A DNA stretch of 64,000 nt from Candidatus Woesearchaeota archaeon (GCA_016929255.1 JAFGJH010000029.1:375-64374); one strand, 5' to 3'. Counted from the stretch's first letter, positions 7,401-57,800 are shown. Notes: generated by a model not told the origin, from the sequence alone. Translations and numbers: made by a program.

Positions 7401-7644
7401 TACAGTCGACAGTCCCTGTGAGCTCATTCGTATAATTGAAGGTGAAAGCTAAAGTATCATTGTCTGTGTTCAGGATAGCACTATCCGGCGGAGAAACAAG
7501 ATTCACGATGGCAAGCACATAGCTCACGTTAAGCAGCAAGACCAGGATTGCGAAGACAAGAAGCAATGACTTAGAAGACGCTGAGGCCAATCTGCCTGAA
7601 AAATAATTTAGCACATTTCTTGTCTTTTTCCCCAAGTTCGCCAC
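1477..7644 (-). CDS. giant (2055 aa) cell-surface glycoprotein: N-terminal signal, right-handed beta-helix (pectate-lyase-like PbH1) repeats, multiple Ig-like repeats, Pro/Ala/Thr-rich stalk and C-terminal TM anchor
   Basis: GTG start at 7644; hydrophobic N-terminus LLLVFAILVLLLNVSYVLAIV. Very many N-x-S/T sequons. Repeated beta-helix blocks (NNTLYNNYYGAWVEGGSGSNITGNNVYGS, ITRNNVSSNTGRGVSLDSN, etc.). Repeated about 90-aa Thr/Ser/Asn-rich Ig-like modules ending in CxxxxxCT. A G9 run, then PPAKRTASAAPAEG...TPPAPAETV stalk and WYWYLFGTLIAIIAGVMVALYFVEKKRP C-terminal helix. Confidence 0.85.
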   Translation of the reverse strand: MANLGKKTRNVLNYFSGRLASASSKSLLLVFAILVLLLNVSYVLAIVNLVSPPDSAILNTDNDTLAFTFNYTNELTGTVDCNLTLNGVVVGSQASVVVDILAAIYSSEAFIEDANFWNITCSNTTDTNVSETRSFLFDSNPPTAGATTAVNFTYVYGTWLACNRNDINITANFSDTGSGINTSSCEWKDRSGPAQWHNTSTSWSGNSTHGYCIATTSTSTAEQDYNLNLRVWDLAGNLATATIFPGWTDCTAPSTTTNETGGWHSAPYIVNLTCSDGSSGCRNISYNYNSGGWVTGGPGPIEVTIDALGNNTLEYYSTDNVNNTESTKTVYAALNLQCGDTITSDTTLPADLAGCTGNGLNIATAGVTLDCNGHHIQGDYVSSGNEYGVYITANGVTVKNCTIYGYNTTSGVEAGIYATGSSNVLLLNNTLYNNYYGAWVEGGSGSNITGNNVYGSKFQGILVSGAATGFKIMSNIVHDTTSLGVANEAGIAVTGGSASNGLIYGNTLHDLTGASSNLIGGVYTSNINSMNISSNVLYDVNSTGITVQGTPSANNIEDNTITSCFIGGMSIAGTNHNITRNNVSSNTGRGVSLDSNTTRLWHNNIYSNSEYGVYALISIDLYYNNQGNYWGHSTCGSLFTAGVDSNAANVVDSYPYNASNGWTTYGAPPVCSMPGVLLDMPMYPDVRMFSMFNFSVNVTDVQPVTAVAVWNGTAAQPMVMSGADPTNAIWWAVVYLSGFIDGPTSDLVVNATNGYMYNDTEAFDIIVDNTAPSVMPSSPADSFNTSVGSFDAVFIVTDDLATNATCNATLYNASGTPVSTIGNDTTINDTATTLTLSFAAPGIYTWNVTCYDKAGSNVLDTINGNAGSSATRTVTYDVVGPVVDYTALDEPDIMVSGFAPNNVISIEANYTDAGTGVAYVTANFTEIPSANVSIVNMTPDSGLWVVDASVSDTSSYDFEPKNITLIAYDFAGNPQEGGLDIVFETVVLYNMTLMPGDPAGCGEIAAGSTDFSTETDWNHIDLNLLIDLNYSTSCGIPALVADDLLHRSAKFNFTDINLTSEEAFQQLGSFLDSIDVTITPDGQFGNSRIYLNSSAVATFNRTAILTLYGLPFDSMPSLVADPGAAGINETAFTTLYEPYTTVNGTFGNLTFMVNGFSGYNASDTVAPTITVNSPAPNMTTVRGPAPLINFTVNGTGTQVSWVQVYLDGTGYSYNPGDSRYEVTCNATSPGSELYNCNLTAPLGDGSHVLNITAYDYGDDTGNSNYTVWNFSTDSSAPSVTNNQSNVTGIVNSNTVILLNVTVTDSTNVSSVEAGYTTMVPMTNHSATGYNLTTTPAALGCTESGTCTVTFNATDYWNQSNTSVVTSFTVDVGPPSVSGVSVTNATNVSSSTVVNIQATVADPATVADVRANGQSMSLLSGTTTSGTWSGNFNATDLGCSGDATCPITINASDTLGNYNDTETTSYYVDDTNPAVTAPSASPFEVKPASALYIGAVVSDVSNVTSVVSNNSVALTNTGSSWNATTNASALGCAANAVCTIGFTATDMAGNANNTETTTVMVDDTAPVVAFTYNSSSLRRSADTVTLNVTVDEINTNASVTANGHAMTRQGTSNTWSIAGVAVGGAGLGCAISTSACLITFTATDGAGNIGTATTNLQIDNDGPLVINPGVNVTKAKIGDDVMVRVTATDSPAGMTSVSVEGVAMTAMGAGLYEVNDTGTNFGCAANSVCTLTFTALDTLTNANNTVTTNYTTDNLIQAVPNDFTASSLSSSGATVSSSSFTENVICTVNYGTNESLLGTVVAGSISATGAVTLSGLSASTTYYYNVTRCRDEAGNVDTTERGPFNFTTSAASTGGGGGGGGGSYTTTSILELGDLTGGQTEMGLKSGDSMHFTHDAKDHYVKVIRLGEASVDFEVLSEPQSFTLYIGQSKDVNLDGDTRDDVTVKLIDIVYNKALVKVTSLVSGGSKIALLPPAKRTASAAPAEGESPADVGEAAAPAAPETSAAPTATPPAPAETVVNEQKGAWYWYLFGTLIAIIAGVMVALYFVEKKRPGHGL

Positions 7645-31601: not shown

Positions 31602-31705
31602 GGGCTCGTAGCTCAGCCTGGTAGAGCGTCCCGTTCGCAACGGGGAGGCCTCGGGTTCAAAAGACAGCAATGCGGATTGCTGAACTGAAAGTCCCGACGA
31701 GTCCA
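31602..31705 (+). tRNA. tRNA-Ala (anticodon CGC) with about 30-nt intron in the T-loop
   Basis: Acceptor GGGCUCG/CGAGUCC with the G3:U70 Ala identity pair; D-arm GCUC-AGCCUGGUA-GAGC; anticodon arm UCCCG-UUCGCAA-CGGGG; variable AGGCC; T-stem UCGGG/CCCGA. The T-loop is UUCAAA + AGACAGCAAUGCGGAUUGCUGAACUGAAAG + U, i.e. a non-canonical intron near position 59/60. Confidence 0.8.
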
Positions 31706-31709
31706 CTTT

Positions 31710-31809
31710 GGGGCATTAGTGTAGCTTGGACGGCAAGCGTTGCTCTGCCGGAGCAATATCACTGGCGGTTCGGGGCCGCCCGACCGGGGTTCAAATCCTC
31801 GATGCCCCA
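31710..31809 (+). tRNA. tRNA-Gly (anticodon GCC) with atypical D-arm and about 23-nt insertion (probable intron) in the variable region
   Basis: Acceptor GGGGCAU/AUGCCCC; anticodon arm UUGCU-CUGCCGG-AGCAA; canonical T-arm CGGGG-UUCAAAU-CCUCG. A 28-nt segment UAUCACUGGCGGUUCGGGGCCGCCCGAC sits between the anticodon stem and the T-stem and forms a hairpin. Only 4 nt separate it from tRNA-Ala. Confidence 0.7.
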
Positions 31810-32148: not shown

Positions 32149-35100
32149 TTGGTTGTTGATGGTCAGAAGGCTGAAGCATACATAAAACAGGTTTTAGAAA
32201 AACTGAATCGTAAATATTCAGAGAAGACGTTTAGAACTCCTTTTGAAAACTTTATCAATTCATTGAGTCCAGATTATTCGCTTCAACAAGAGATAACGGA
32301 TGAAGGAATTGGAACACCAGACTTCAAAGCATTCTATAAAAATCACAAAGTGGGTTATATTGAAACTAAGGATTTTAATGCCACTCTTAAATTAGACACT
32401 GAGCAAATAAAACGGTATGTTGACTATGAGAATAACCTCTTGCTTACCAATTATGTTAAGTTTGTACTAATACGAAAAGGAAGAACAATACAGACTGCAA
32501 CGCTATTCTATCCCGAGATTAATTCTAAGAACAAAAGCCAAAAATTAAATCGGAAACACTTAGATGATGTTTTGACCCTCATTTCAGAATTCTTCGGATT
32601 TCCAATAACTCCAATCCAGTCAGCAAAAGAGTTGGCAGTCGAACTCGCAAAAAAAGCTAAATGGCTAAACTTGTTGTCTCAAGAGCAACTCGAGCTCGAA
32701 AGAACTCTCCCCAGAGATAAACGAGGTAGTATTTCTGAGTTCGAGATAGGACTTAAAGAGCTAATCGGAGATTACGAACAAGATATCAACTTTGGAGAAG
32801 CGTATGCAGAAACAATTACGTACGGACTCTTTTTAGCCAAGCTAGAATTAGGAAATAATAAAACACTGGATAAAAACACCGCGTATCAATTCATCCCTCC
32901 ACAAATAAAAGTCATCAAAAGAATTTTTAGGAACATAACCGACCCAGGAGAGCTTCCGCAGTCTCTCTCATGGGTGGTTGATGATATAATAGATATTCTC
33001 AATCTTACTGACTTAAATAAGTTCATTGCAGAGTTCCATGTGGATGGAGAAATATTCAGAGATCCATTTTTCCATTTTTATGAGGATTTTTTATCTGAGT
33101 TTAATCCAGTAAGAAGAAAGAAGATGGGGGTCTACTATACCCCCATCCCTATAGTTAAATTTATTGTCCGCTCAACAAATAGCATATTAAAGAAAGAGTT
33201 TCATCAAAAACTAGGATTTGCAACTGAAAACGTTCATACGCTGGATCCGTGTGTAGGAACTGGAACTTTCTGCGTATTGGCGATAATGGAAGGAATAAGT
33301 GAGTTGAAAAAACACAAATTGATGGGTTTGAAAAAAAGTAAAATAAAGAACCACTTCCTAAAGAGATTTTTTGGTTTTGAGATTTTAGTGTCGCCTTACA
33401 TAATTGCTCATATGAAGATTGGAGAATTACTTGAACAAGATAAATATGAGTTAGGTGTGGATGAACGAATACCTGTTTATTTAACAAACACACTGGAACT
33501 GCATCCTGAAGAAGGTCACGAACTATCTCCGTTTCTTACTGTAATTAAGAATGAAGTTCATACTGCAAATGAGATTAAGACCAAGAAACCGCTTCTTGTA
33601 GTAATGGGTAATCCGCCTTATTCAAGCAGTAGCTTTAATGATAAAAAATGGATTAAGAAGAAAATTGAGGATTATAAAGAAGGATTAAATGAAAGAAAAC
33701 TCGGAGATCTTGATGACGATTACGTTAAGTTCATACGGTTTGCTCAGTGGGAGATTGAAAGACAAGGCAAAGGTGTTGTTGCTTTTATAACTAGCAACGG
33801 GTATCTTGAAGGAATAACTTTTCGAAAAATGCGTGAAAATCTGTGCAAGACATTTGATAAAATATATATCTTAAACTTACATGGAAACTCTAGAATAGGT
33901 GAGCATTCTCCTGACGGCTCAAAAGATGAAAATCCATTTAACATCCAGACGGGTGTTGCAATTGGTTTGTTTGTGAGAAATTCTGAAAAACCAAAGAAAA
34001 TTGCAGATGTCTACTACTTTAATGAGTATGGGCTCCGCGATCTAAAACTTAAGTTCTTGAATAAGAATATGGTTGACACAGTTAAATGGAAAAAACTTGA
34101 TATGTTTGATGAGAATTTCTGGTTTGTTCCTAAGGATCATTCAACTTACAAAAAATATGCTGAGTTTTTCGAGGTTAGACATATTTTCAAAGAGTATAGT
34201 AGTGGTGTAGAAACTAAACGAGATAATTTTGTTATAGACTTTGAAAAAAAAGAACTGATTGATAGACTTACTAAATTTGCTAATACTGACGAACGTGTTG
34301 ATGTTACGAGACGTATTTTCGGGCTTTCTTCAAAAAGTGATTTGGATGTGGTTGGTGCTCAGAAGTTCTTGAAGAGCAATAAATATAAGTTATCAGATTT
34401 TGTTATAAAATATAACTACAGACCCTTTGATGAACGGTTATTATTTTATAAAGAATCTCTTGTTAGTAGAACAAGATTGCCATTTATGAACAGTTTATTA
34501 TTGCCAAATATTGCTCTGAATTTATGTAGACAAGTCAGACCGTCTCACCCATTTAATCATGTTTTTGTCACTAACAACGTTACTGATAGGATTTTGTTAT
34601 CAAATACAACCTCTGAGTGTAGCTTTGTTTTCCCTCTGTATATCTATGAAAAAGAAACGCAGTTGAAACTAGGCTCACAGAAATCAAAAACAGGAAAGAA
34701 ACAAATTAATTTTACAGAGGAGTTCAAAACGTTCTTAAAAAATGAATACAAAAAAGATGTCGCACCAGAAACTGTAATGGGTTACATATATGCCATACTA
34801 AATTCCTGCAAATATAAGACAGAGTTTCAAGAAGCATTACGAACTGACTTTCCGAGGGTTTACTTTGTCAAGAGTTTGAAGAAATTTATAAAGATTGCCG
34901 AATTAGGTTCTGAGCTAGTTGATCTTCACCTTTTGAAAAAGAAGAAACTGAACAGGGTCGGAACTTTTGAAGGAAAAGGAAACAACTCTGTTGAAAAGAT
35001 AATATATAAAGATGATAAAATATTCATAAACAAAAATCAATACTTTGGCAAAATCAGTAAGGACTTATGGGAGTTCAAGATTGGAATATATCCTGTATTA

Positions 35101-35241
35101 AATAAATGGCTCTATTACCGAAAAGGTAGAACGTTATCAAATAATGATGTCGAGACGTTTATTGATATAGTCAGCAATATCTCTGAAACAATCAAGATAT
35201 TAACAGAAATAGACAAAATAGACATTTTTAAAGGAGAATAA
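32149..35241 (+). CDS. single-polypeptide type IIG/IIL restriction-modification enzyme (MmeI-like: N-terminal PD-ExK nuclease + gamma-class N6-adenine methyltransferase + C-terminal target-recognition region)
   Basis: TTG start with AAGAGGTG Shine-Dalgarno and an upstream TATA. N-terminal GTPDFKAFYKNHKVGYIETKD (D...E.K nuclease motif). Methyltransferase motifs VYYTPIPIV (motif X), LDPCVGTGTF (motif I), VVMGNPPYS (motif IV NPPY). About 400-aa C-terminal region; 1030 aa. Confidence 0.65.
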   Translation: MVVDGQKAEAYIKQVLEKLNRKYSEKTFRTPFENFINSLSPDYSLQQEITDEGIGTPDFKAFYKNHKVGYIETKDFNATLKLDTEQIKRYVDYENNLLLTNYVKFVLIRKGRTIQTATLFYPEINSKNKSQKLNRKHLDDVLTLISEFFGFPITPIQSAKELAVELAKKAKWLNLLSQEQLELERTLPRDKRGSISEFEIGLKELIGDYEQDINFGEAYAETITYGLFLAKLELGNNKTLDKNTAYQFIPPQIKVIKRIFRNITDPGELPQSLSWVVDDIIDILNLTDLNKFIAEFHVDGEIFRDPFFHFYEDFLSEFNPVRRKKMGVYYTPIPIVKFIVRSTNSILKKEFHQKLGFATENVHTLDPCVGTGTFCVLAIMEGISELKKHKLMGLKKSKIKNHFLKRFFGFEILVSPYIIAHMKIGELLEQDKYELGVDERIPVYLTNTLELHPEEGHELSPFLTVIKNEVHTANEIKTKKPLLVVMGNPPYSSSSFNDKKWIKKKIEDYKEGLNERKLGDLDDDYVKFIRFAQWEIERQGKGVVAFITSNGYLEGITFRKMRENLCKTFDKIYILNLHGNSRIGEHSPDGSKDENPFNIQTGVAIGLFVRNSEKPKKIADVYYFNEYGLRDLKLKFLNKNMVDTVKWKKLDMFDENFWFVPKDHSTYKKYAEFFEVRHIFKEYSSGVETKRDNFVIDFEKKELIDRLTKFANTDERVDVTRRIFGLSSKSDLDVVGAQKFLKSNKYKLSDFVIKYNYRPFDERLLFYKESLVSRTRLPFMNSLLLPNIALNLCRQVRPSHPFNHVFVTNNVTDRILLSNTTSECSFVFPLYIYEKETQLKLGSQKSKTGKKQINFTEEFKTFLKNEYKKDVAPETVMGYIYAILNSCKYKTEFQEALRTDFPRVYFVKSLKKFIKIAELGSELVDLHLLKKKKLNRVGTFEGKGNNSVEKIIYKDDKIFINKNQYFGKISKDLWEFKIGIYPVLNKWLYYRKGRTLSNNDVETFIDIVSNISETIKILTEIDKIDIFKGE

Positions 35242-35258
35242 ATACCCGAGGTTGAATC

Positions 35259-36356
35259 TTGTCTGAATTCACATCCGAATCTGTAACGGAAGGCCACCCA
35301 GATAAAATCTGTGATCAAATCAGCGATGCTGTTCTTGATGCATGCTTAAAACAGGACAGAAAGTCTCGAGTGGCATGTGAAGTTTTTGCAACTGGCAACC
35401 ACCTAATCCTGGGTGGAGAAATCACTTCTAAGGCTAAGATAAATCCTGAAGCCATTGCTAGACGAATAATTAAGAGAATAGGTTACACATCACAGGATAT
35501 GGGCTATTCTTATGACTCAGTAAATATCCAGAACTTAATACAGAAACAGTCTCCAGAAATCTCAATAGGGGTTGATAAAGGGGGTGCAGGAGATTCTGGT
35601 CTAATGTTCGGGTATGCTACAAACGAGACCAAAGAGTTAATGCCTTTACCAATTCTCCTTGCTCATAAACTAGCTAAACAATTAGCAGATATGCGCCGTT
35701 CGAAGTTGAGATATCTAAGACCTGATGGTAAGGTTCAGGTGACTGTTGATTACGAAAATAAGACTCCTAAATCTGTTAGTGCAATAGTTGTATCTGCACA
35801 ACACACCTCAGAAATTTCTCTCAAGAAACTCAGAGATGACTTAGAGAAACATGTTATTAAACCAGTTTGTTCCAAGTACATGACAAAAAAAACTGAGTTG
35901 ATGATAAATCCAGCAGGGAAATTTACTATTGGAGGACCCGTTGCGGATACTGGACTTACCGGAAGAAAACCTGGAGTTGACACCTATGGAGGTATAGCTG
36001 CGCATGGTGGAGGTGGCTTTTCTGGAAAAGATCCTACCAAAGTGGATAGATCTGGAGCATATATGGCCCGATATGTTGCCAAAAGTATCGTTTCCTCAAG
36101 ATTGGCTGATAAGTGTGAGATTCAATTGGCTTATGCAATAGGTAAAGCACAACCAGTCTCTTTACTAATTGATACACAAGGAACGAATAAGATTCCTGTT
36201 CAGGAGATATATGGGATAGTCAAACGTAAATTTGACTTCACACCTAACGAGATAATAAGAAAGTTGAATCTACTTAACCCGATATATGAAAAAACTGCTG
36301 CGTATGGGCATTTTGGAAGACCTAGTTTCTCTTGGGAACAATGTTGTAAACTCTAG
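35259..36356 (+). CDS. metK: S-adenosylmethionine synthetase, bacterial/eukaryotic MetK type
   Basis: [57 protein letters not shown] are canonical MAT motifs. TTG start 18 nt after the upstream stop. Archaea normally use a distinct archaeal-type MAT. Confidence 0.85.
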
Positions 36357-47592: not shown

Positions 47593-48111
47593 ATGATCGA
47601 GCTTGAGAAGACATACCTGGCAAAGTCAGTCCCAAAAGGCCTTGCTGAGTGCAGGTCAAAGGAGATAATAGACATATACATACCAAGATCACACCTGCAT
47701 CCCAAACTGAGGATACGAAAGAACGGCGACAGGTACGAGATGACAAAGAAAGAGCCTGTCGCTGACGACGCATCAGAGCAGGAAGAGCAGACCATCATCC
47801 TGACAGAAGAAGAGTTCAACGCACTCAACAAGCTTGACGGGAAGAAGACCCGCAAAATCCGCTATCACTACCCGCACGACGGCAGGATGGCAGAGATAGA
47901 TGTCTTTGAGGGAGCGCTCAAAGGTCTCATAGTCATTGATTTTGAGTTCGACACAGAAGAGGATAAGGAAACTTTCGCCATGCCTGAATTCTGCCTTGCT
48001 GAAGTCACGCAGGAGGAGTTCATAGCAGGCGGGATGGTCTGCGGCAGGAAGTACGAAGACCTTAAGAAAGACCTTAGAAGGTACAATTATAAGAAACTAT
48101 TTCTTGACTGA
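47593..48111 (+). CDS. CYTH-domain triphosphate tunnel metalloenzyme (CyaB/thiamine-triphosphatase-like)
   Basis: N-terminal MIELEKTY (the EIEhK CYTH signature) and paired acidic residues (EIDVFE, DFEFD); about 170 aa. Confidence 0.6.
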   Translation: MIELEKTYLAKSVPKGLAECRSKEIIDIYIPRSHLHPKLRIRKNGDRYEMTKKEPVADDASEQEEQTIILTEEEFNALNKLDGKKTRKIRYHYPHDGRMAEIDVFEGALKGLIVIDFEFDTEEDKETFAMPEFCLAEVTQEEFIAGGMVCGRKYEDLKKDLRRYNYKKLFLD

Positions 48112-48627
48112 AAGTCCATATATGCTGAATGATGCCCCTTTCACAGACAGCTGCCTTTCAGGATTCAGCGTCAGGGGCCTGAATATGTTGTCAGCGATGA
48201 TGAGCGTGCCCTTGAACTGATCGACGATGTTCTTCTCGAGCCTGTAGAAATAGTTGTCCGGGTTGATGAAGATGACATCATATGCTGACAGGTCCTCCTC
48301 AAGATAGTCAGCATTCTTCAGCAAGTAATCAAGGCAGAGCCTGCCCCTCATCTCAAGAGCGGCCTTATGGAGCCCGTCATCCGCCTCGATGCCTGCAGCG
48401 CGGGTGAAGAGCGAGGCGACTGCGACGACAATGCCGTCACCAGAACCAAGATCGGCAAAGCCCTTGTATCTCTCCAGGCCGAGCTGCCTGAAAAGCTCAA
48501 ACAAGTGCGCAGGGTTTGAAGAGGCCCAGTAGCCGACCTTTGTCGGTCGCTGGGCATTGTGCGACATTATCAGCCTTCTGCGCCGTCTCGAGTATTCCCT
48601 GTTTATCATATCAAACTTTTCCTGCAT
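48097..48627 (-). CDS. class I SAM-dependent methyltransferase
   Basis: FADLGSGDGIVVAVAS (motif I) and VIFINPD (motif IV-like). Confidence 0.6.
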   Translation of the reverse strand: MQEKFDMINREYSRRRRRLIMSHNAQRPTKVGYWASSNPAHLFELFRQLGLERYKGFADLGSGDGIVVAVASLFTRAAGIEADDGLHKAALEMRGRLCLDYLLKNADYLEEDLSAYDVIFINPDNYFYRLEKNIVDQFKGTLIIADNIFRPLTLNPERQLSVKGASFSIYGLSVKK

Positions 48628-48884: not shown

Positions 48885-49742
48885 TCATTTGCTGGCAATA
48901 ATCTCCTTGACCGCGTGGACAAAACCCTCTGCCTCTTTCCTGTACCTGTCGTAATGGTCTCCGGAGACCCGGCTGACCTCGCCCGACATGATCATGCGGC
49001 CGACATTCATGAACTCGCCGACAACAGACAAGTGACGCTTCTGCATCACCCCCTTCACCACAAGGTGGTGCTTCATGAGAGGTATGATATGCTCAGGAGT
49101 GTCGGGGACAATTCCATAGTGCAGGAGCGCGGCATGCGCTGCATCGACAACGCCCCAGTAAAGGTCAAGCACCGCCTGCTTCATGTTCCAGTGGGCGTTC
49201 GATATAGACATAGGCCCCCTTCCGAGGTATATCCACACTATCTCCTTGCCGGGAAGTATCTTCCCTGAGCTCAGCATCCTCTTGGCCATCCCGAAACATC
49301 CTGTATCAAATAAGGCGGTGCCGTCACGCAGCATGTTAATCAGTATCGGGTCCCCTTTCACGGAGTAATCCCAGAACTTGGTGAGAGGCATGGTCGTTAT
49401 GTGGAGCCTTTTGGAAACCTTTGCAGCGGTCTTCTCTGTCACAACCCTATACGCAGTGATGACCTCAGGGGTGAGAACATTAATCATGTCGTCGAAGACT
49501 ATCATAACATCTATGTCGCTGCCGAAAAGAGCCTCGTCGCGGAGGTCCTTCTTGCCATGCACGAACCCTCCCCTGACAGCTGAGCCGAACCACACCACAG
49601 ACTTCACCAGAGTGCCCAGCTCTTTCCTCATCCCATCAGAGAATCTCCTGACTATGCCCTCTATCTCGCCTGGTTTCGCGACATATTCTGAATGTGCTGT
49701 CCTGATGTTCATTCCAAAGGCACCCCACTCCAAAATACCCAA
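48885..49742 (-). CDS. Pol-beta-superfamily nucleotidyltransferase fused to HEPN-like helical domain
   Basis: VVWFGSAVRGGFVHGKKDLRDEALFGSDIDVMIVF (GS...DxD NTase motif); C-terminal AVLDLYWGVVDAAHAALLHYGIVPDTPEHI (HEPN-like). Confidence 0.6.
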   Translation of the reverse strand: MGILEWGAFGMNIRTAHSEYVAKPGEIEGIVRRFSDGMRKELGTLVKSVVWFGSAVRGGFVHGKKDLRDEALFGSDIDVMIVFDDMINVLTPEVITAYRVVTEKTAAKVSKRLHITTMPLTKFWDYSVKGDPILINMLRDGTALFDTGCFGMAKRMLSSGKILPGKEIVWIYLGRGPMSISNAHWNMKQAVLDLYWGVVDAAHAALLHYGIVPDTPEHIIPLMKHHLVVKGVMQKRHLSVVGEFMNVGRMIMSGEVSRVSGDHYDRYRKEAEGFVHAVKEIIASK

Positions 49743-51766
49743 TCATCCGTGGGCCTGTACTCTCCGACGACGTACGGCGGCGGGTTCACGTGGCCGAAAT
49801 AGCTCTCCGCAACATCGCTCCAGCGCGCGCCACCGGGAGTCGCTGCAAAGTAGCTGTCAGCAATATCAGCGCCGAAAGCCCTCCAGGTCTGCAGCAGTAT
49901 CCTTCCCCTCCCGAACTGCTCCTCCTCATGGCCCTCTGACACCACAAATCCTGTGAAGCCGTGCGACTTCAGGTAATCGACAGCCTCGACAACCGGAAAT
50001 ATCCCCTGGCCGGGAGGCAGGTGGCCGTGGGCAGCGGTCGCCGAGTCGACAGCCTGCACGCTGCCGATGACACCCTCCTTCTGCATCTTCTCCACCATCT
50101 CCATGTACCAGCCCTTGAACCGCGCAAGACGCTGCTCCTCTGACTCCTGGGGATGCGCCTTCTTGAAATGCTGCAGCCACATGCCGAGATGTGACGTGTC
50201 AAAGCATCCCTTGAGATGCCTGTCAGCGAAACTATTAGCATCATCCTTTGAAAGGCCCCTCTCCTTTACGAGGCGTTCAGCCATCTCCTTCCTGGACTCC
50301 TTTATCAGCTCGATAAACTCATCAGGATGGCCGCCGTAACCGGTAGGCCATCCGATCTCAGGCCCAACATGGATGGGCCGCTCGACCCTCCTGTTGTTCC
50401 TGGTCTCGTCGAACGCAGCAAGCCCTGCCTCAGCATAAGACTCCACCGCCTTTTCCTTTGCATACTTCTTCAGGGACACAACCTCATCCATGGTCCTCCT
50501 CACCTCATCCGCCTGCGCGTCCGAGGCTGCAGATGCCTCATGCACGTGCTTGAGGCGGTGCTGTATCTGGTCAAGGTTCTGCCTGATTATCTCAGTGGGC
50601 TTCCTGTACTCGGGAGGTATGAACATGCCGTGCATGGCAGGGTCCTCGCGAAGCATCTTCCACTGCTCTTCGGGAGGTATGGCTTTCTCCACCTTCTCGT
50701 AATATTCCAGGGCTTTCTTCAGCGACTCCCTCCTCTTGATTTCCTCCTCATACTGGGTAGTATAGAAAAGCGAATGGCCCCTCGCCTGCATCCACTTGTT
50801 CTCAAGATTAAGCCTGAAAGCGTACTCGGCAGGGTCCAACGGCTCCATAGCCACACCCCTCTCCTTGGCCAGCGCATTGAAATCCTTTGTCCTCTCGACT
50901 ATCCTTTCCCAAGGCACCCTTTCTGACTTGAACTTCTTGTTAGTAGGATCCCACTCGGGGACGCGGTAGAGCAGCTCCTCATTGTTGAAAGGGTCTATCC
51001 ACTTACCGTCGACATCGACCCAATCGCCAGCCTTTATCAGGATCTTGTTGCCCTTCCTGTCCTCGCCCCACCTTTCCTTGTCAGACTTCTTGAACACCGG
51101 CTCGAATATGTCTGTCGAGTGCCTCATCTCCTGCATGACATGACCAGTCCTCTTGTCGACAAGATATTCTGTCGCGAACTTGTCCTCTGTCTCGTAGGCC
51201 TCGAACTGGCCAGCCCACTTGCCCTTCTGGTTCCAGGGCGCGTCGACGATGTTCCTCGTGAACTCCTGGGACCACACGTCAACCCCGCCGCCTCCGGAGA
51301 CATCCGCGAGGAACTTGATGGCATCCTTGACCTCCTGCAGGTCCTTATGCCTCTTCTCGTCGGAGATATTGAAACGCTGGGGATCAAAACCTGAAAGGTT
51401 AGTTATAGACGACGTGGGCATCTCAACACCCTCTATCATGACATTGTTGGCCCTTGAAAGCTCCCTCAAGCCCTCGCGCACCTCCTTGCCGTAGGCCTTA
51501 GGCCTGCCGCCTATCGCGTTATAGGATGGCTGGTTGAAGACCAGCTGTATCTTGCTGGTGCCCTGCCTTATCGCAGCGTCGACATTCTGTATTATGTTGC
51601 CGCCAGTCACAGGGTCCTTCTCAACGACGGTCACGCCAAGCTCATTGATGGGGATTATGGGCTTCTCCAGCCTAGGTGCCTCCCTCTGAGGCTGGCTGTA
51701 TTCCCTGTCCATCGGCGTGTAGCTCGGCCCTGTACTGAACTGCATAGTATCAACCCTTGACTCCAT
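49709..51766 (-). CDS. large hypothetical protein with C-terminal xylose-isomerase-like TIM-barrel domain
   Basis: C-terminal GHLPPGQGIFPVVEAVDYLKSHGFTGFVVSEGHEEE is typical of sugar-phosphate isomerase/AP-endonuclease-2 folds; the roughly 420-aa N-terminal part is unassigned. AAGGAG Shine-Dalgarno; overlaps both flanking genes. Confidence 0.55.
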   Translation of the reverse strand: MESRVDTMQFSTGPSYTPMDREYSQPQREAPRLEKPIIPINELGVTVVEKDPVTGGNIIQNVDAAIRQGTSKIQLVFNQPSYNAIGGRPKAYGKEVREGLRELSRANNVMIEGVEMPTSSITNLSGFDPQRFNISDEKRHKDLQEVKDAIKFLADVSGGGGVDVWSQEFTRNIVDAPWNQKGKWAGQFEAYETEDKFATEYLVDKRTGHVMQEMRHSTDIFEPVFKKSDKERWGEDRKGNKILIKAGDWVDVDGKWIDPFNNEELLYRVPEWDPTNKKFKSERVPWERIVERTKDFNALAKERGVAMEPLDPAEYAFRLNLENKWMQARGHSLFYTTQYEEEIKRRESLKKALEYYEKVEKAIPPEEQWKMLREDPAMHGMFIPPEYRKPTEIIRQNLDQIQHRLKHVHEASAASDAQADEVRRTMDEVVSLKKYAKEKAVESYAEAGLAAFDETRNNRRVERPIHVGPEIGWPTGYGGHPDEFIELIKESRKEMAERLVKERGLSKDDANSFADRHLKGCFDTSHLGMWLQHFKKAHPQESEEQRLARFKGWYMEMVEKMQKEGVIGSVQAVDSATAAHGHLPPGQGIFPVVEAVDYLKSHGFTGFVVSEGHEEEQFGRGRILLQTWRAFGADIADSYFAATPGGARWSDVAESYFGHVNPPPYVVGEYRPTDDWVFWSGVPLE

Positions 51767-52577
51767 CCTTGACGTGCTCCTTCACGAACTCGTCGATCTC
51801 CTTGATGAAAAAATCAGCATCGGCAAGATAAGAATCGAAATCCCTGCCCGAAACCTCAAACACCTCCCTGTGCATCACCTTCTTTGCAGCATCATAAACC
51901 CTGTCTATTATCTCGCCGCACCTCCTGTGCACAAGGTTGCGCGCGACCAGCTCCCTCTTGACTGTCTCTGCAAGATGGCTCGGAGAGGGTGGGACAATGC
52001 CTGCGACCATGACCGCTGCGTGTGCCGCATCAGTGACCGCCCAATAAAGATCCACAACCGCCCTCGCGACATGGTGGTTGGCATCCTTGACAGAATGCTC
52101 TGCCTTGACGAAGTAAACGTTCACGCTCTCCTTGGAAGGCCGTATCTTGCCTGTCACCAGCAGGTCCTGGATAGGGAGGAAAAACCCGTTGTCGTGCACG
52201 GCAAGCGACTCCCTCAGCAGATGCATGGTGCCCTCGTCACGGGCATTGAATCCTGCCCAGAACTCAGACGCGAGCAGGGTCCCGCACTTGAGCGGCAATG
52301 TGCTGGTGTATGCCATCTCTGAGATGTCCAGCTTCAGGCCCTCGACCTGCTGGTCAAAGACAACATTGTTGAGGTCATCTATCAGGAAAATAAGCTCTAC
52401 AGACTCTGACGCTGAAGAAGGTCTCTTGATGACTGATGATGATATGAGCGCCTTATACCTGGAACGCACCTTTTCCGAGAATGACTCTATATCCCTGTAC
52501 CTATGGTCAGCAATCTTCCCGCTGTTTTGCAACTGCCTGGGTTTCAGCGTCTCTTCCATAATGATACACCAATGCAC
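51750..52577 (-). CDS. paralog of the 48885-49742 gene with degenerate nucleotidyltransferase motif and HEPN-like domain
   Basis: VVDLYWAVTDAAHAAVMVAGIVPPSPSHL parallels VLDLYWGVVDAAHAALLHYGIVPDTPEHI. The N-terminal region ELIFLIDDLN replaces the GS...DID motif. Confidence 0.5.
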   Translation of the reverse strand: MHWCIIMEETLKPRQLQNSGKIADHRYRDIESFSEKVRSRYKALISSSVIKRPSSASESVELIFLIDDLNNVVFDQQVEGLKLDISEMAYTSTLPLKCGTLLASEFWAGFNARDEGTMHLLRESLAVHDNGFFLPIQDLLVTGKIRPSKESVNVYFVKAEHSVKDANHHVARAVVDLYWAVTDAAHAAVMVAGIVPPSPSHLAETVKRELVARNLVHRRCGEIIDRVYDAAKKVMHREVFEVSGRDFDSYLADADFFIKEIDEFVKEHVKDGVKG

Positions 52578-52650
52578 AAATAATCTTCAAACATGATTTA
52601 AAATTTATTTACCATTCAAGGATGGTGCGGGAAATGATGCCATCAGGATC

Positions 52651-53259
52651 TCATCCTCCGCCTGGCCCGAACCAGTTCATCTTGTAGCCCATGGACCTCA
52701 ACAGCCTCATGGACTGGACAACATCCTCGACGAGCTCCTCCGAAGGCGTCGAGTAGAGCTCCCGGTCGGGCGGCTTCTGCATGCTCTGACGGAGCACATC
52801 ATATGCCTCTCTCGCGTGCTCATACACCTGGAGGAACTCATCCCTTGTCGGCGGGACATTGTCCTGCGAATACCACTGCTGGATCTCCTGGAGGGTGTTC
52901 TGCGGCAGGAGCTCCTGTATCCTCCTCGCGTAGTCTGCTCCTCCTCCGCTCCCAGCCAAGGCCTTGTCTGCAGCAACTTCCTCTTCTATGCCCTTTGACT
53001 TCCCGAACAGCCTGTTTATATCGATCTCTTCCTGCTTCGGGACCTCGATCTCCTGAAGCATCTCGTCGAGCTTGATCTCCTTCAGCGACTCCTCGACTAT
53101 GCGCCTGGCCTCATCCTCCTGCTTCTTCCTCCTTGTCTCAAGCTCCTTGAGCCTCATCAGGCGCTCCTTGGGCGGAAGCTTCCTTATCTCCTCAAGCTCT
53201 TTCTCATCAGCCATCTTGGTCAATTCCGTGCGAGGACAAGCACCGGCTCGGCCCGCCAA
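52651..53259 (-). CDS. hypothetical coiled-coil protein
   Basis: TTG start 4 nt after the upstream stop, with GGTGAGG just before it; charged helical sequence with a C-terminal Gly-rich end. Confidence 0.45.
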   Translation of the reverse strand: MAGRAGACPRTELTKMADEKELEEIRKLPPKERLMRLKELETRRKKQEDEARRIVEESLKEIKLDEMLQEIEVPKQEEIDINRLFGKSKGIEEEVAADKALAGSGGGADYARRIQELLPQNTLQEIQQWYSQDNVPPTRDEFLQVYEHAREAYDVLRQSMQKPPDRELYSTPSEELVEDVVQSMRLLRSMGYKMNWFGPGGG

Positions 53260-53265
53260 CAGACC

Positions 53266-54738
53266 TCACCAGGTAATCATCCTGTGAGCCTTCTTGAAGT
53301 TCTTGTAAGTGTTCCATATAGCAGCCTTCATCGGTCCGGCAGCCTTTTTCCTTTCGCCGCCGAGCTCCCATGCTGTCGGCTTCCCCTTATCCTTCCTCTT
53401 GACCGTGGGCAACAGCGCGCCGAACACCTCCTTGAAGCCTCCGAACAATGCAGTGAACGGCTCCACCGCGCCTTTCATCTGCTCAAGCCGCTTCTTCTCG
53501 GCGGCCTTCTGCTCATCTTCCTTCTTGGCTTCCTCAGGGAACTTCTCTCCAGCCTCCTTCAGGTAGTTGCGCAGGTCATCCCCGAGTGCCTCGATAGACT
53601 CTTTCAGCGAAGTGTCGACATCACCGAGCAGGTCAAGGGTCTCCTGTTCCCGCATCCTGAAATAATTGGCCATCTCATCATCAGTCCAGACATAGCCGCG
53701 CATCGTGAACTCACTCCTTCCGACATGCACCGGCCCCTTGTGCTGGTAGCCATCCTGGTGGAAATCCATATGGGGCTGGGTCCTGAACAGTATGTCCAGC
53801 ACGACGACCGAATGACAGTGCTTCGACGACTTCCTGCTGCAGACCACCTCTATCTCGGTGACGCTGCCCTCGAAAGCGCCGATGATGTCCTCGCTCATCG
53901 TGCGGGTGAAGTTCTGCTCCAGCCTCCTCACGTTCCTGAGGTAAGGCTTCACCCAGTTGATGTACATCTGTATCGCGTTGTAGTGCTGGCGCAGGAACTT
54001 GAGAGTGAACTTCCTCCTGTTGCTTATCTCGCTGTAAGTGAAATCCTTCCAGACAAGATATGCCTTCAGCTTCTTCCTGAGCACATCCTTGACCTTCACA
54101 TTGAACTTCAGGCTGTCGACGTAGCTGTCCACCTCCTCTTTCCTCATCGGCGGGGCCGCGAAGAAAAGGTCCGGAAGGGCGGTGTAGCCGAGCGTGCTCG
54201 CAAGCCCGTAGACAGAACCAGGAGACTTCACGCCGCCGTCCTTCAGGTCGACCCAGTAGCTCCTCAGCACTATCTCTGCCGACTGGCTCATCCTCCTGTC
54301 GAAGACACTGGACCTGGACGCCACAGCCTTGTTGCTCTCGTCATAGAGGGCAAGCCTCTCGTCAAGTATCCTCATCTCGCGGACTATCTGGAACAGCTCC
54401 TTGGTCAGCTTGCCAATCGTCGCCAGATAGTTCGAGACCTGGCCCTGCTGGATGGTCAGCCGCTGCTGAGCCTGGCCCCAGAACGCAGACTGCTCAGAGG
54501 CGGTGAATATGTCGGTGATCTTCTTCACGTCGTGCAGGCCGAAATCCTCCCTCAGGCTTGCGAGGAGCCAGAAATAGACCTCCTCTATCGACTGGTTGAA
54601 GGACTGGTAGACAAGCCTCATCTTATGGACAGGCCTGGGAAAGTTCTTTACCGGGACAAGCTCTTCAGGCAGGTTCGAGCCTCTAGCTCTCTCATCCCAA
54701 TCATAGTCCTTGAAACCAAAATCCTTGCATTCAACCAT
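53266..54738 (-). CDS. hypothetical protein (490 aa), first gene of a 5-gene minus-strand operon
   Basis: Long ORF, protein-like composition, no family recognised; K/E-rich C-terminus. Confidence 0.5.
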   Translation of the reverse strand: MVECKDFGFKDYDWDERARGSNLPEELVPVKNFPRPVHKMRLVYQSFNQSIEEVYFWLLASLREDFGLHDVKKITDIFTASEQSAFWGQAQQRLTIQQGQVSNYLATIGKLTKELFQIVREMRILDERLALYDESNKAVASRSSVFDRRMSQSAEIVLRSYWVDLKDGGVKSPGSVYGLASTLGYTALPDLFFAAPPMRKEEVDSYVDSLKFNVKVKDVLRKKLKAYLVWKDFTYSEISNRRKFTLKFLRQHYNAIQMYINWVKPYLRNVRRLEQNFTRTMSEDIIGAFEGSVTEIEVVCSRKSSKHCHSVVVLDILFRTQPHMDFHQDGYQHKGPVHVGRSEFTMRGYVWTDDEMANYFRMREQETLDLLGDVDTSLKESIEALGDDLRNYLKEAGEKFPEEAKKEDEQKAAEKKRLEQMKGAVEPFTALFGGFKEVFGALLPTVKRKDKGKPTAWELGGERKKAAGPMKAAIWNTYKNFKKAHRMITW

Positions 54739-54864
54739 CCTGTTGTCATGCCTCTTTTTTGCTTTGCCTTACCAACCAGCTGAACAATCATTGTTGAGCT
54801 GTGTTTATAAACATTATGGTGGTCTTACTGACGACAGCGTGACATTGCTGCGCATGGCCCGCAC

Positions 54865-55188
54865 TCACCTCTTGTAGAGCACGGCGACGAAACCCACCTG
54901 GTCGACAAGCTCTGACCGGGTCATCTCAGCAAGATCCCTCGCAGCCTCTTTCCTGTCGTTCGTATCGACAAAAGCCCTCAAAAACTTCACCTTGACCAGA
55001 TTCCTCTTCACCAGGAGCTTCCTCACCTGGAGCACCGCAGATTCGGTCAGGCCATTCTTGCCTATCCTAACCAGCGGCTCCAAAAGCCGCGCCTTGCTCC
55101 TCAATGCCTTGATGGTCTCAGGGGCCATCTTAGTCCTCTTGGCCATCCTGGCCATCCCGTCCATATCAGTCTTCAGCTCCATCAACAT
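54865..55188 (-). CDS. CRS1/YhbY (CRM-domain) RNA-binding protein
   Basis: ETIKALRSKARLLEPLVRIGKNGLTESAVLQVRKLLVKRNLVKVKF matches the YhbY/CRM signature (L...A..L.P.v.iGK.GlT..v........ELVKVK). Confidence 0.7.
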   Translation of the reverse strand: MLMELKTDMDGMARMAKRTKMAPETIKALRSKARLLEPLVRIGKNGLTESAVLQVRKLLVKRNLVKVKFLRAFVDTNDRKEAARDLAEMTRSELVDQVGFVAVLYKR

Positions 55189-55192
55189 CCAC

Positions 55193-56911
55193 CTATGATC
55201 CTATGTGCGTAGGGTGATCCTGGCCCACACCCTTCCTCTCAATGAGGTCATTGATGTGCCTGTATTTCAGCATCAGCATCCTGAGCTGGTTGGACTCAAA
55301 ATCAGGCAGCAGGCTGGCGACCATGTCGCCTCCGAGGAAATGCGGAAGAATCACATAATCAGCGCCCTTCCTGTAAAGCTCAAGAGCCTGGTCTATCTTG
55401 TGCGCAGTCACTATCGTCGGGACGTACTTGTTCGCAGCCTTCACCTTCTGCAGCAGCAGGAGATTGTCATCATACGAGTTTGCGGTCGATATCACGAGCT
55501 TTGTGTTCCTCATCTCGAGCCGGCCCATGACCTCAGGGTCGCAGATGTCACCATACAGGCAGGCCACGCCCACCTTCTTCAGCTTCTTGACGACATCAGG
55601 GTTGAAGTCGACAACAACCACGCTCTTTTCCTGTGCTTTCAGCGACTTCAGTATGCTGTACCCTATACGGTCATAGCCGCAGAGCACCACATCGTAGAGC
55701 ATCTTCTCACCGCTCTGCTTACGGTGGTGGGCAGCCTTGATGCCAATCCTCTTCAAAAGGTTCACAAACTGATGGTAGAAGCTGTTCTCATAGTCCATGA
55801 AATAAGACGTGAAAGTCATGGTAATTACAGCCAGCAGTATGGTCAGCGTCAGGATGCCCTGAGAGAGCACGCCAGCATTCACCCCCTGCAGCACTATTAT
55901 CAAGGAGAACTCGGATATCTGCGCAAGCGATGTCGCGGTGATGAAGGACGTCCTCGCCTGATTGCGCAGGAGCACCAAGGTGACATGCAGTATCGCTGTC
56001 TTGCCGACCACGACGAGCAGCAGGAGCACAAGCAGAGGCAGCATCAGGGATAATATCCCTTCCAGGGTCAGCTGCAGCCCCAGCGAGGTGAAGAACATGA
56101 TGGAAAAGAAGTCCCTCAACGGCTTCACCTTGCCGACTATCTCGATGTTGTAAGGCAGGTTCGCGAGAAGCACTCCTGCGAAGAACGCACCTATTGTTAT
56201 CGAAAGTCCTATTGCGCTGAATATCAGCGAGAACAGGAAGCAGACCCCCAATGATATGGTCAGCAGAAGCTCCCTGGACCTGGCGGCGAACTCGAAGACT
56301 GAAGGGAATATGAACTTGCTGGCAAGAATGCCGAAAATCAGCACCAAAGCAATCTTGGCGAAGAAAAGATAGCCTATCGCAGCGCTCGACACAGACGCGA
56401 GGTATGACAATGCAATGACCGCAAATATGTCCTGCACGACGAGTATTCCTATCGTCATCCTGCCGTGCAGGGTGTTCGTCTCAAGATTGTCAGACAGTAT
56501 CTTTATCACTATCATCGTGCTGCTGAACGCGATGACCAGCCCGAGATATACCGCCTCGACATTGGTGAAGCCGAGCAGCTTGGTTACCACATACCCCATC
56601 GCAAAGACAAATGCCATCTGCACACTGCCCGCCACAGAAGACACCAGCCCCAGGTCCTTGAGCTTCTTCAGCTCGAGCTCGAGGCCTACCATGAACAGGA
56701 GGAACGCTATGCCTATCTCGCTGAGGTTGGCTATCAGCTCATGGTTCGTGATGATGCCCAGGACATTGCCTATCACCACGCCTGAGATTATGTATGCTGG
56801 TATGAGCGGCTGCTTCGTCAGCTTCGCTATGTAAGTGCCGAGGCCGGCAAAGATCACGAGCATGCCTATCTCAAAGAATATGTCCATGTCATCCCACCTT
56901 TCGCCCGGCAA
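55193..56911 (-). CDS. Kef-type monovalent cation:proton antiporter (CPA2) with C-terminal RCK/TrkA-N domain
   Basis: 11-12 TM helices, then VVLCGYDRIGYSILKSLKAQEKSVVVVDFNPDVV (Rossmann GxGxxG-like RCK). The ATG 24 nt downstream of the annotated TTG (MDIFFEIG) has an AGGTGGG Shine-Dalgarno and may be the real start. Confidence 0.75.
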   Translation of the reverse strand: MPGERWDDMDIFFEIGMLVIFAGLGTYIAKLTKQPLIPAYIISGVVIGNVLGIITNHELIANLSEIGIAFLLFMVGLELELKKLKDLGLVSSVAGSVQMAFVFAMGYVVTKLLGFTNVEAVYLGLVIAFSSTMIVIKILSDNLETNTLHGRMTIGILVVQDIFAVIALSYLASVSSAAIGYLFFAKIALVLIFGILASKFIFPSVFEFAARSRELLLTISLGVCFLFSLIFSAIGLSITIGAFFAGVLLANLPYNIEIVGKVKPLRDFFSIMFFTSLGLQLTLEGILSLMLPLLVLLLLVVVGKTAILHVTLVLLRNQARTSFITATSLAQISEFSLIIVLQGVNAGVLSQGILTLTILLAVITMTFTSYFMDYENSFYHQFVNLLKRIGIKAAHHRKQSGEKMLYDVVLCGYDRIGYSILKSLKAQEKSVVVVDFNPDVVKKLKKVGVACLYGDICDPEVMGRLEMRNTKLVISTANSYDDNLLLLQKVKAANKYVPTIVTAHKIDQALELYRKGADYVILPHFLGGDMVASLLPDFESNQLRMLMLKYRHINDLIERKGVGQDHPTHIGS

Positions 56912-57800
56912 CGCCGAGCCTCTTTATCTCGCGGAGGAAGTCGCTGGCTATGAAGCCGAAACCGAAATTGGACCTCTTCAGGAGGAGGTCTCCAATCCTC
57001 TTGCAGTTGTGCGACGCAAGCCCCGCGGACGTGAACAGGTCTGCCGTCTGCGCCACGTATCCTGCGCAGATCCCTGCAAGGATGTCACCTGTCCCGCCGA
57101 CGGTCATACCCGCATTCCCGCCCCTGCTTATCAACGACCTGTCCTTTGATATGACCAGGTCATGCCTGCCCTTGAGCAGCAGGACATTCCCTGCGCTGAA
57201 AAGACCTGAGAGCTCTGCCTGTATCATGCAAATCCTCTCTCCGTCGGAGAGCCTGCTGTCCTTGAGCCCGCCGGCGAGCGCAGTCCTCCTGTTCACCCTG
57301 AGGAACATATCGAACTCGTCCGCGTGGGGTGTGATTATCGCGTTCTTGAGGCGCCTTATCTCTGCTACCTTCACGGCGTCAGCGTCGATTACCATAGGGA
57401 CCCCGATGCCAGAGAAGCCTTTCAGGAGCAGGTTCACCACCCTCGGGCCGACACCAGACATACCAGGGCCGATGAGCACAGCATCGGAGCGCCTGCCAAG
57501 GTCTACCAACGTCCTGACGTGCGGCTCTGATATGTAATCCCCTTTCAGCTTGACAGTGATCAGGTCCGGCGAGAGCGCGTTCATCGCCCAGGCAGCCTTC
57601 TCAGGCGCAGCTATCCTGACCATGTCGCAGCCAGCCCTCAAGGCAGCGAGGCCCGCGAGAGCCGGCGCGCCGACATAGTCTTTGCTCCCTCCTGCAACCA
57701 GGACAAGTCCATTCTGTCCTTTATGAGAATCAGGCTCCCGTCCCGGGAGTGCAAGTCTCGGTCCTCTTCCTTCCCGCGTCATATTATCATCTTTCAGCAA
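56889..57800 (-). CDS. nnrD: ADP-dependent NAD(P)H-hydrate dehydratase (YjeF C-terminal domain family)
   Basis: HKGQNGLVLVAGGSKDYVGAPALAGLAALRAGCDMVRI and GGTGDILAGI are YjeF-C signatures. Confidence 0.7.
   Translation of the reverse strand: MLKDDNMTREGRGPRLALPGREPDSHKGQNGLVLVAGGSKDYVGAPALAGLAALRAGCDMVRIAAPEKAAWAMNALSPDLITVKLKGDYISEPHVRTLVDLGRRSDAVLIGPGMSGVGPRVVNLLLKGFSGIGVPMVIDADAVKVAEIRRLKNAIITPHADEFDMFLRVNRRTALAGGLKDSRLSDGERICMIQAELSGLFSAGNVLLLKGRHDLVISKDRSLISRGGNAGMTVGGTGDILAGICAGYVAQTADLFTSAGLASHNCKRIGDLLLKRSNFGFGFIASDFLREIKRLGVAGRKVG

Follow-up and report, generated by a model that had tools for sequence, protein, structure and literature searches.

A vertically inherited gene cluster of DPANN archaea that probably encodes a soluble housekeeping enzyme module with a split TIM barrel and a KNTase-like nucleotidyltransferase

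The resistance enzymes KNTase/ANT(4'), AadA/ANT(3'')(9) and AAD(9) are built from a Pol-beta-type nucleotidyltransferase (NTase) domain with G-S and D-x-D motifs followed by a helical bundle, and KNTase is a dimer with composite active sites. In the MntA-HepT system, Pol-beta NTase and HEPN folds are encoded by separate small genes and an R-x4-6-H motif is present, and toxin-antitoxin (TA) loci of the MNT-HEPN kind are patchy, often multi-copy and mobile. The Hailong system has a membrane effector, HalA, beside the NTase HalB, and a defence-island spread. Sugar epimerases of the UlaE type (PF01261), in turn, are contiguous TIM barrels of ~285 amino acids. Elements reminiscent of all of these systems meet in a five-gene cluster, p1 to p5, on the minus strand at 48885-54738 of a 64,000-nucleotide stretch (hereafter the window, meaning the whole stretch) of a metagenome-assembled genome of Candidatus Woesearchaeota (GCA_016929255.1 JAFGJH010000029.1:375-64374). 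Proteins of that genome are 100% identical to p1 and p5. The cluster is conserved as a neighbourhood across its lineage and is inherited vertically, and we hold with moderate confidence that it is a lineage-wide housekeeping gene cluster of DPANN archaea encoding a soluble enzyme assembly, not a mobile defence or TA system. That it forms a conserved functional module of some non-defence kind is highly probable.

DPANN archaea are abundant, almost entirely uncultivated symbionts, and their lineage-specific genes are mostly unannotated. The present cluster is one of few cases in which several such genes can be tied together, namely those for an orphan-fold protein with >800 homologues, its fast-evolving partner and two enzymes of recognisable superfamilies. 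The tie rests on genes that stay adjacent between deeply diverged lineages, a second DPANN phylum among them, and it offers a testable entry into DPANN-specific biochemistry. Our search of the literature found no paper that describes the cluster.

The maximal open reading frames (ORFs) of the closely packed genes run from 54738 to 53266 (p1), 53259 to 52651 (p2), 52577 to 51750 (p3), 51766 to 49709 (p4) and 49742 to 48885 (p5). Refinement of the start codons of p2, p3, p4 and p5 by alignment with homologues gave the following genes:

53266..54738, minus strand: p1, a 490-amino-acid orphan protein
52651..53214, minus strand: p2, an acidic helical protein of ~187 amino acids (maximal ORF to 53259)
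51750..52559, minus strand: p3, a catalytically dead paralogue of p5 (maximal ORF to 52577)
49709..51766, minus strand: p4, a xylose-isomerase-like TIM barrel of 685 amino acids
48885..49712, minus strand: p5, an NTase + HEPN-fold fusion of 275 amino acids (maximal ORF to 49742)

The ATG of p2 (53214) lies 51 nucleotides past the p1 stop and that of p3 is at 52559, while p4 starts at ATG 51766 or 51745, with either a 17-nucleotide overlap with the p3 stop or a 4-nucleotide spacer. The p5 start, ATG 49712, overlaps the p4 stop as ATGA, which suggests translational coupling of the two genes. The G+C content of the cluster (0.53-0.55) is similar to that of its flanks, no transmembrane segment is predicted in any of the five proteins, and no other paralogues of the five families occur elsewhere in the window. 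The initial annotation had described five tightly packed or overlapping minus-strand frames at these positions, in which a xylose-isomerase-like TIM barrel is flanked by two HEPN-like paralogues, one with an intact and one with a degenerate Pol-beta motif, and had recognised no described system in the arrangement; all of this is borne out for the window by the results below.

Homologues of the TIM-barrel gene were found in 158 GTDB species-representative genomes, all of Woesearchaeota/Nanoarchaeota. For the analysis of gene neighbourhoods, 80 species-level genome loci of these 158 were sampled together with 10 extra loci, and one TIM locus per genome was present among the 80. Directional counts were made with iterated hidden Markov models (HMMs), and separate counts were obtained by unbiased clustering of the neighbours in the 80 loci:

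p1 upstream of TIM: 37/53 loci, iterated HMMs
p2 upstream of TIM, between p1 and TIM: 29/53 loci, iterated HMMs
YhbY upstream: 26/48 loci, iterated HMMs
NTase downstream of TIM within 3 kb: 46/57 loci, iterated HMMs
Dead paralogue in the p3 position: 9/53 loci, iterated HMMs
Neither p1 nor NTase: 3/43 loci, iterated HMMs
NTase: 58/80 loci, unbiased clustering
p1: 44/80 loci, unbiased clustering
p2: 38/80 loci, unbiased clustering

The neighbourhood search that had been proposed with the initial annotation shows the genes to be co-conserved, and the top partners of TIM in the unbiased clustering were the NTase, p1 and p2. The pairwise identity of each partner follows that of TIM (r = 0.84 for p1, 0.86 for p2 and 0.67 for the NTase). 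When three distant p1 homologues were taken as starting points, p1-(p2)-TIM adjacency was recovered in 3/3 cases, and at one locus (L086), where the TIM identity is ~37%, the p1-TIM pair is kept among entirely unrelated flanking genes. Two distant members of the p3/p5 superfamily led to two further loci. At the first, of Aenigmarchaeota type (L089), three genes stand in a row: one resembling p1 (hhalign 87%, E = 4e-6), one for a split TIM barrel that matches PF01261 with 32.7 bits, and one for an NTase-HEPN protein that weakly matches the HEPN model PF05168 (E = 0.017); at the second (L090) the order is p1 (E = 9e-77), a 155-amino-acid gene, TIM, NTase and a second, longer NTase-like gene. The module is present throughout the Woesearchaeota/Nanoarchaeota sampled and, in a diverged version, in the Aenigmarchaeota-type locus. 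Its general pattern is p1-p2-TIM-NTase. Bracketing of the TIM gene by two paralogues, which the initial annotation described for the window, occurs in only 9 of the 53 loci and is a clade-specific elaboration. At one locus (L084:13301-17235) two unannotated genes of 621 and 654 amino acids lie between TIM and a DOT1-like methyltransferase gene, in the place of the NTase; neither matched the p5/p3 HMMs at E<=1e-3.

The product of p5 is a Pol-beta-type NTase with intact G43-S44 and D66-x-D68 motifs, fused to a four-helix domain of the HEPN fold. PF01909 was matched by 27 of the 36 family members (best E = 2.7e-11), and the AlphaFold2 model (predicted local distance difference test (pLDDT) score 84) has a four-helix bundle at residues 156-274. 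Foldseek searches with the model returned ANT(4') (6un8, E = 3e-5), as well as AadA, AAD(9), HalB and MntA, and the HEPN protein AF_0298 (2hsb, E = 0.02, TMt 0.68). The KNTase/ANT enzymes were the best full-length matches, with template modelling (TM) scores of 0.41-0.44, at 10-15% identity and with no sequence-level match. Judged from the model, p5 has the architecture of a two-domain KNTase/ANT(4')-like NTase, with the NTase fold, both motifs and the fused C-terminal helical domain in place, and it is predicted to be active. Unlike the ANT resistance genes, p5 belongs to the chromosomal core of DPANN archaea and is linked to a gene for a TIM barrel, and the family further differs in its own invariant residues, R129, E157, W186 and H193, and in the existence of an ancient dead paralogue. 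MntA-HepT shares the two folds with p5 (7ae9 and 6m6u, Foldseek E = 7e-4 to 9e-3) but not the gene organisation, as p3 and p5 are fusions of ~270 amino acids and paralogues of each other. The family also lacks the R-x4-6-H motif for which a check had been proposed with the initial annotation, because no Arg is found 4-6 residues before the invariant His: positions -4 to -6 of H193 (DLYWAVIDAAH) are W/A/V in all 36 sequences. The HEPN Pfam model was reached by no Woesearchaeota member of the p5 family. HalB is a fold neighbour of p5 as well (E~1e-4), with low TM scores of 0.27-0.37.

The relationship between the two outer proteins is clear, with 30% identity over 206 amino acids by BLASTP (E = 2e-36) in an alignment that spans the AV(V/L)DLYW(A/G)V(T/V)DAAHAA...GIVP segment quoted in the initial annotation. 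At the catalytic positions p3 reads KRPSS...VEL, so that R-P stands in place of G-S and V-E-L in place of D-x-D, and both Pol-beta motifs are missing, but it keeps the HEPN-fold domain and the equivalents of the four family-invariant residues. The superfamily is small, and an exhaustive search with p3 found 315 representatives among 1.8 billion. Among 149 representatives, 97 were of the active and 18 of the dead type, and R129, E157, W186 and H193 are kept in both. In a neighbour-joining tree the upstream dead copies, which span two divergent lineages and come from the clade of the window and three divergent loci, all form one clade apart from all active copies, and at the G-S position of the active enzymes they have an Arg in common. 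Because of this single clade, the common Arg and the retained R/E/W/H residues, p3 is, as far as alignment and tree can tell, a conserved pseudo-enzyme from a single old duplication. The pair offers a clean example of an ancient dead NTase paralogue that is kept beside its active twin. Genes of 285-286 amino acids near TIM at two loci (L001 and L002) were considered as divergent dead NTases and rejected by hhalign. Elsewhere in the superfamily, P0389, P0408, P0420, P0421, P0433, P0441 and P0451 include 590-640-amino-acid forms with unannotated N- and C-terminal extensions and a 1136-amino-acid TPR fusion, and at L090 members of 275 and 637 amino acids lie side by side after TIM.

The central protein, p4, scores 33.2 bits against PF01261 (AP_endonuc_2), above the gathering cut-off of 31.1, and the family is matched by 29 of 30 p4 homologues (best E = 2.6e-18). 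According to sequence profiles the fold is that of a xylose-isomerase-like TIM barrel. Unlike the contiguous UlaE-type epimerases, p4 has its barrel split by a poorly conserved insert of variable length (~150-250 amino acids at about residues 215-440; ~230 amino acids here), which accounts for a family size of 600-760 amino acids. Once the insert was taken out, matches to UlaE, MJ1311 and D-tagatose 3-epimerase were obtained for the C-terminal half; hhalign placed the N-terminal half on E. coli UlaE (E = 6e-5, 64%), and the two halves lie along UlaE in their proper order. When p1, p4 and p5 were searched against the sequences of the PDB, singly and as profiles, only weak partial matches to NTases and sugar epimerases came back, and for p4 the best of these were all sugar epimerases/isomerases. 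Among known enzymes p4 is closest to the sugar-phosphate 3-epimerases, and it is predicted to be metal-dependent and to have a helical insert. With UlaE, FrlC, D-tagatose 3-epimerase and MJ1311 it shares a D-x-x-H motif (DTSH), a last-strand Glu (E611) and an LPPGxG loop, and its own signature motif is AHGHLPPGQG. Residues that are invariant in the alignment include E168, E470, H480, D523, H526, H580, H582 and E611, with D574 and E115 nearly invariant and H613 a further invariant His. A role for p4 as a multinuclear enzyme of the MNIO/DUF692 or endonuclease IV (Endo IV) type was also considered and rejected, since no member matches those families and alignment of the p4 profile with E. coli endonuclease IV (Nfo), whose trinuclear Zn site is made of nine residues, failed (hhalign probability 0.4%). 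Weak matches to PRK01060 were seen in only 2 of 12 members.

For p1, more than 823 homologues were found, all annotated as 'hypothetical' and without a Pfam domain, and a Pfam scan of 47 of them gave no recurrent family. Of the partners of the TIM gene, p1 is conserved best. The AlphaFold2 model (pLDDT 77) has two small beta-sheets linked by very long helical hairpins and is dominated by helices of 50-67 residues, and three features mark the tail of the protein: a conserved hydrophobic motif rich in F and G (428-446), a polybasic stretch and the helix WxTYKNFKKAHxMxxW. Foldseek searches of the model against PDB and BFVD returned coiled-coil noise (TM<=0.23) and no fold match. The p2 protein is acidic, helical and fast-evolving, with a conserved N-terminal motif (alignment consensus kkLpPeeR.k.Lk.Le) and a mean identity of 27%, yet its pairwise identity follows TIM as closely as that of any partner. 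Whereas p4 and p5 are new, atypical subfamilies of known superfamilies, p1 and p2 are orphans. Both fit the observation that most lineage-specific families of DPANN archaea are without functional prediction (Castelle et al. 2021, PMC8204110), although the predictions for those families are mostly of membrane-bound or extracellular proteins, whereas p1-p5 are predicted to be soluble. That study makes no mention of the cluster, or of a TIM barrel, NTase or HEPN.

The family resemblances of p4 and p5 lead us to propose, tentatively, a specific chemistry for the module, in which p4 would isomerise or epimerise a phosphorylated sugar- or polyol-like substrate and p5 would transfer a nucleotidyl group to a hydroxyl of this molecule or of one derived from it. 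As a KNTase-like dimer, p5 may build each active site from two subunits, with the helical domain of the one supplementing the site of the other, and where p3 exists the two could form an asymmetric p5:p3 heterodimer with a single functional site. The orphan-fold helical/beta protein p1 may serve as a scaffold, with p2 as its small helical partner, to organise or localise the enzymes. A bolder and more doubtful extension is that the cluster encodes an undescribed, DPANN-specific cytoplasmic machine, in which a p1/p2 scaffold, a split and atypically metallated TIM barrel and a KNTase-like NTase paired with a pseudo-enzyme would produce or remodel a sugar-like metabolite or signal that is nucleotidylated and on which the symbiotic way of life depends, possibly with a tie to cell division because linkage to FtsZ recurs.

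Several observations weigh against this interpretation. The physical complex, the substrate and the catalysis of p1-p5 are all predicted, from sequences and models. When p4 is compared with what we take to be the metal ligands of UlaE, Q571 aligns with a His ligand, and D574 and E611 with acidic residues, and the extra invariant His residues H480, H580, H582 and H613 speak for a metal site of another, possibly multinuclear, kind. Against the curated subfamilies (NCBIfam equivalogs) p4 reached 13-20 bits, with cut-offs of >300; by these scores, by the ligand alignment and by its interrupted barrel it falls outside the UlaE/SgbU/FrlC sugar-phosphate 3-epimerase subfamily. For p5, the relative orientation of the domains in the model is uncertain, because full-length superposition gave a root-mean-square deviation of ~18 A and the predicted TM score (pTM) is 0.51. 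Some p5 members also weakly match palm models (MTPAP-like and DNA_pol_B_palm), and together with the HalB/MntA structural neighbours this means that a polymerising or protein-AMPylating activity is possible. Among five more distant NTase relatives, three (P0410, P0408 and P0417) have no TIM or p1 gene nearby, which confines the linkage to the p5 subfamily and its Aenigmarchaeota and L090 relatives. Finally, these genomes are small and rearrange slowly, and inherited synteny could account for some of the conserved neighbourhood.

The last point can be taken to its limit, with no single system at all and p1-p2, p4 and p5/p3 as two or three unrelated units held together by synteny only in the small, slowly rearranging DPANN genomes. 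A possible internal promoter upstream of p3, the loci with an NTase and no p1 (11/43) or with p1 and no NTase (5/43), the three unlinked NTase relatives, and the synteny that is also seen for housekeeping neighbours (NnrD, the Na/H exchanger, YhbY and the methyltransferase) would all fit. We nevertheless consider this unlikely, as p1-TIM is kept with different flanks at L086 and in the barely alignable Aenigmarchaeota-type locus, the TIM-NTase pair is kept in a clade without p1/p2 nearby, p4 and p5 overlap by ATGA, and loci with neither partner are few. The initial annotation implied a TA or defence function. In such a module a HEPN RNase would be under the control of an MNT-type NTase, which neutralises or activates it, and the TIM barrel would be an accessory effector. 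Both folds are indeed present, an active and an inactive paralogue could in principle be a regulator/effector pair, MntA/HepT and HalB are among the structural neighbours of p5, and in PADLOC-DB v2 p5 weakly matched PDC-S09 (E = 2.8e-6, NTase core) and a generic cyclase model (7e-4), with no match for p1-p4. The two domains are, however, parts of one KNTase-like chain in a family lacking the RNase motif and, in Woesearchaeota, any hit to the HEPN Pfam model, and the cluster is a single-copy, phylum-wide locus (one per genome among the 80, co-inherited with r = 0.67-0.86) with native G+C content and housekeeping neighbours. Searches of viral contigs with p1 and TIM, though not with the NTase, found no relatives. 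A HalA-like membrane effector is missing, since p1-p5 are all without transmembrane segments, and the membrane protein encoded upstream is a Kef-type Na/H exchanger (PF00999), not HalA. The TA/defence reading is largely refuted by these data, and we regard it as very improbable; 'NTase + HEPN' is on its own an unreliable marker of such systems.

Two further readings were considered. One is nucleic-acid end-processing or repair, with p4 as an Endo IV- or CbiR-like phosphodiesterase that would cleave at DNA or RNA ends and p5 as a template-independent nucleotide adder. The extra invariant residues of p4 (H480, H526, D574, H580-x-H582 and H613) recall multinuclear sites of the Endo IV type, going by ligands that we assume for that family, and weak NCBIfam matches to deoxyribonuclease IV (2/12 members) and CbiR phosphodiesterase (2/12) were seen. 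On the side of p5, some members match DNA_pol_B_palm (7.9e-6) or an MTPAP-like palm, HalB makes oligo-dA, and genes for YhbY, NFACT-R and an ATP-dependent DNA ligase recur in the neighbourhood, although these may be merely syntenic housekeeping genes. The profile comparisons speak for UlaE over Nfo by a wide gap, the best PDB sequence matches of p4 are the sugar enzymes named above, and p5 is structurally closer to the small-molecule ANT enzymes than to HalB, which makes this reading rather improbable. The other is a cell-division or cell-architecture module, in which p1 and p2 would work with FtsZ as membrane-proximal coiled-coil scaffolds and the two enzymes would modify a substrate related to division or the envelope. 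It would fit the long helices of p1, a p1 tail that resembles peripheral membrane anchors (the hydrophobic F/G motif, the polybasic stretch and a basic/aromatic helix), and the acidic helical p2 with its short conserved N-terminal motif. FtsZ (PF00091, 2e-48; PF12327) lies within ~7 kb of TIM in 14/80 loci in three arrangements, and directly upstream of it in 10-11 loci with a gap of 21-330 bp. The window itself is without FtsZ, however; the adjacency is mostly that of one clade and may be ancestral gene order, the FtsZ-adjacent loci have no p1/p2 within 7-10 kb, unbiased clustering recovered no other division genes, and p1 is structurally unmatched to known cytoskeletal or division proteins. 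We judge a division role to be decidedly improbable, and a housekeeping enzyme module remains our preferred reading of the cluster.

The cluster is part of a longer co-directional array, in which the genes follow one another as NAD(P)HX dehydratase, Kef-type Na/H exchanger, YhbY, p1, p2, p3, p4, p5 and methyltransferase. The flanking genes and possible promoter elements are:

56889-57800, minus strand: NAD(P)HX dehydratase (NnrD), Pfam match, co-directional syntenic neighbour
55193-56911, minus strand: Kef-type Na/H exchanger with a TrkA_N domain, Pfam match, co-directional syntenic neighbour
54865..55188, minus strand: YhbY (CRS1/YhbY RNA-binding), PF01985 E = 6e-21
48097..48627, minus strand: class-I methyltransferase of 176 amino acids, weak DOT1-like match (PF08123 E = 1e-4)
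54805..54811, minus strand: TTTATAA, possible archaeal TATA box ~70 nucleotides upstream of the p1 ATG, read from sequence
52596..52610, minus strand: AAATAAATTTTAAAT, possible internal TATA-like element ~45 nucleotides upstream of the p3 ATG, read from sequence

The element at 54805..54811 is a possible promoter element of p1. Because the second TATA-like element precedes p3, p1-p2 and p3-p4-p5 could be separate transcription units. YhbY, found upstream of p1 in 26 of 48 loci, is probably a syntenic housekeeping gene and not part of the module. Pfam matches to the exchanger and the NAD(P)HX dehydratase were also obtained at L003, L084 and L085, and unbiased clustering placed the exchanger in 19/80 loci. 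The methyltransferase gene was found downstream in 16/57 loci by HMM counts and in 21/80 by clustering. Just past the cluster, a gene for a CYTH-domain protein (triphosphate tunnel metalloenzyme; 47593-48111, plus strand) is convergent with that of the methyltransferase and is kept only in the closest relative, L004. An ORF of 499 amino acids antisense to p1 (53284-54783, plus strand) is without independent support and is taken as spurious, an artefact of coding-strand composition.

Genes for FtsZ, DNA ligase, an HTH regulator and NFACT are all absent from the window. In the relatives, FtsZ stands directly upstream of TIM at L024, L029, L035, L036, L043, L045, L049, L050, L052 and L068, and 3.6-7 kb from it at L042, L069, L032 and L048. 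Near the TIM-NTase pair it often travels with a gene for a TrmB/IclR-type helix-turn-helix (HTH) protein and that for an ATP-dependent DNA ligase. Genuine small TA pairs occur a few kb from the cluster in two relatives, MazE/PIN at L089:11102-11795 and DUF4258/MazE-like at L086:19091-19449, and show how real TA genes look in DPANN genomes.

Further away in the window, a low-G+C island (0.35 against ~0.50) at 32149-36356 on the plus strand encodes a Type ISP/MmeI-like restriction-modification enzyme of 1030 amino acids (PF18135, 3e-70), followed by a bacterial-type S-adenosylmethionine synthetase (MetK). It lies directly after two tRNA hits at 31602-31809, which were found by Rfam and left uncalled by ARAGORN and may be intron-containing or split tRNAs. 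The region has the look of a defence island that was acquired horizontally and entered at a tRNA locus, and it bears no resemblance to the p1-p5 cluster. Near the start of the window, at 1477-7644 on the minus strand, a gene encodes a protein of 2055 amino acids in which right-handed beta-helix/NosD and Big_7 domains are present. Giant surface proteins are reported from Woesearchaeota/Pacearchaeota, and this protein is probably one of that kind.

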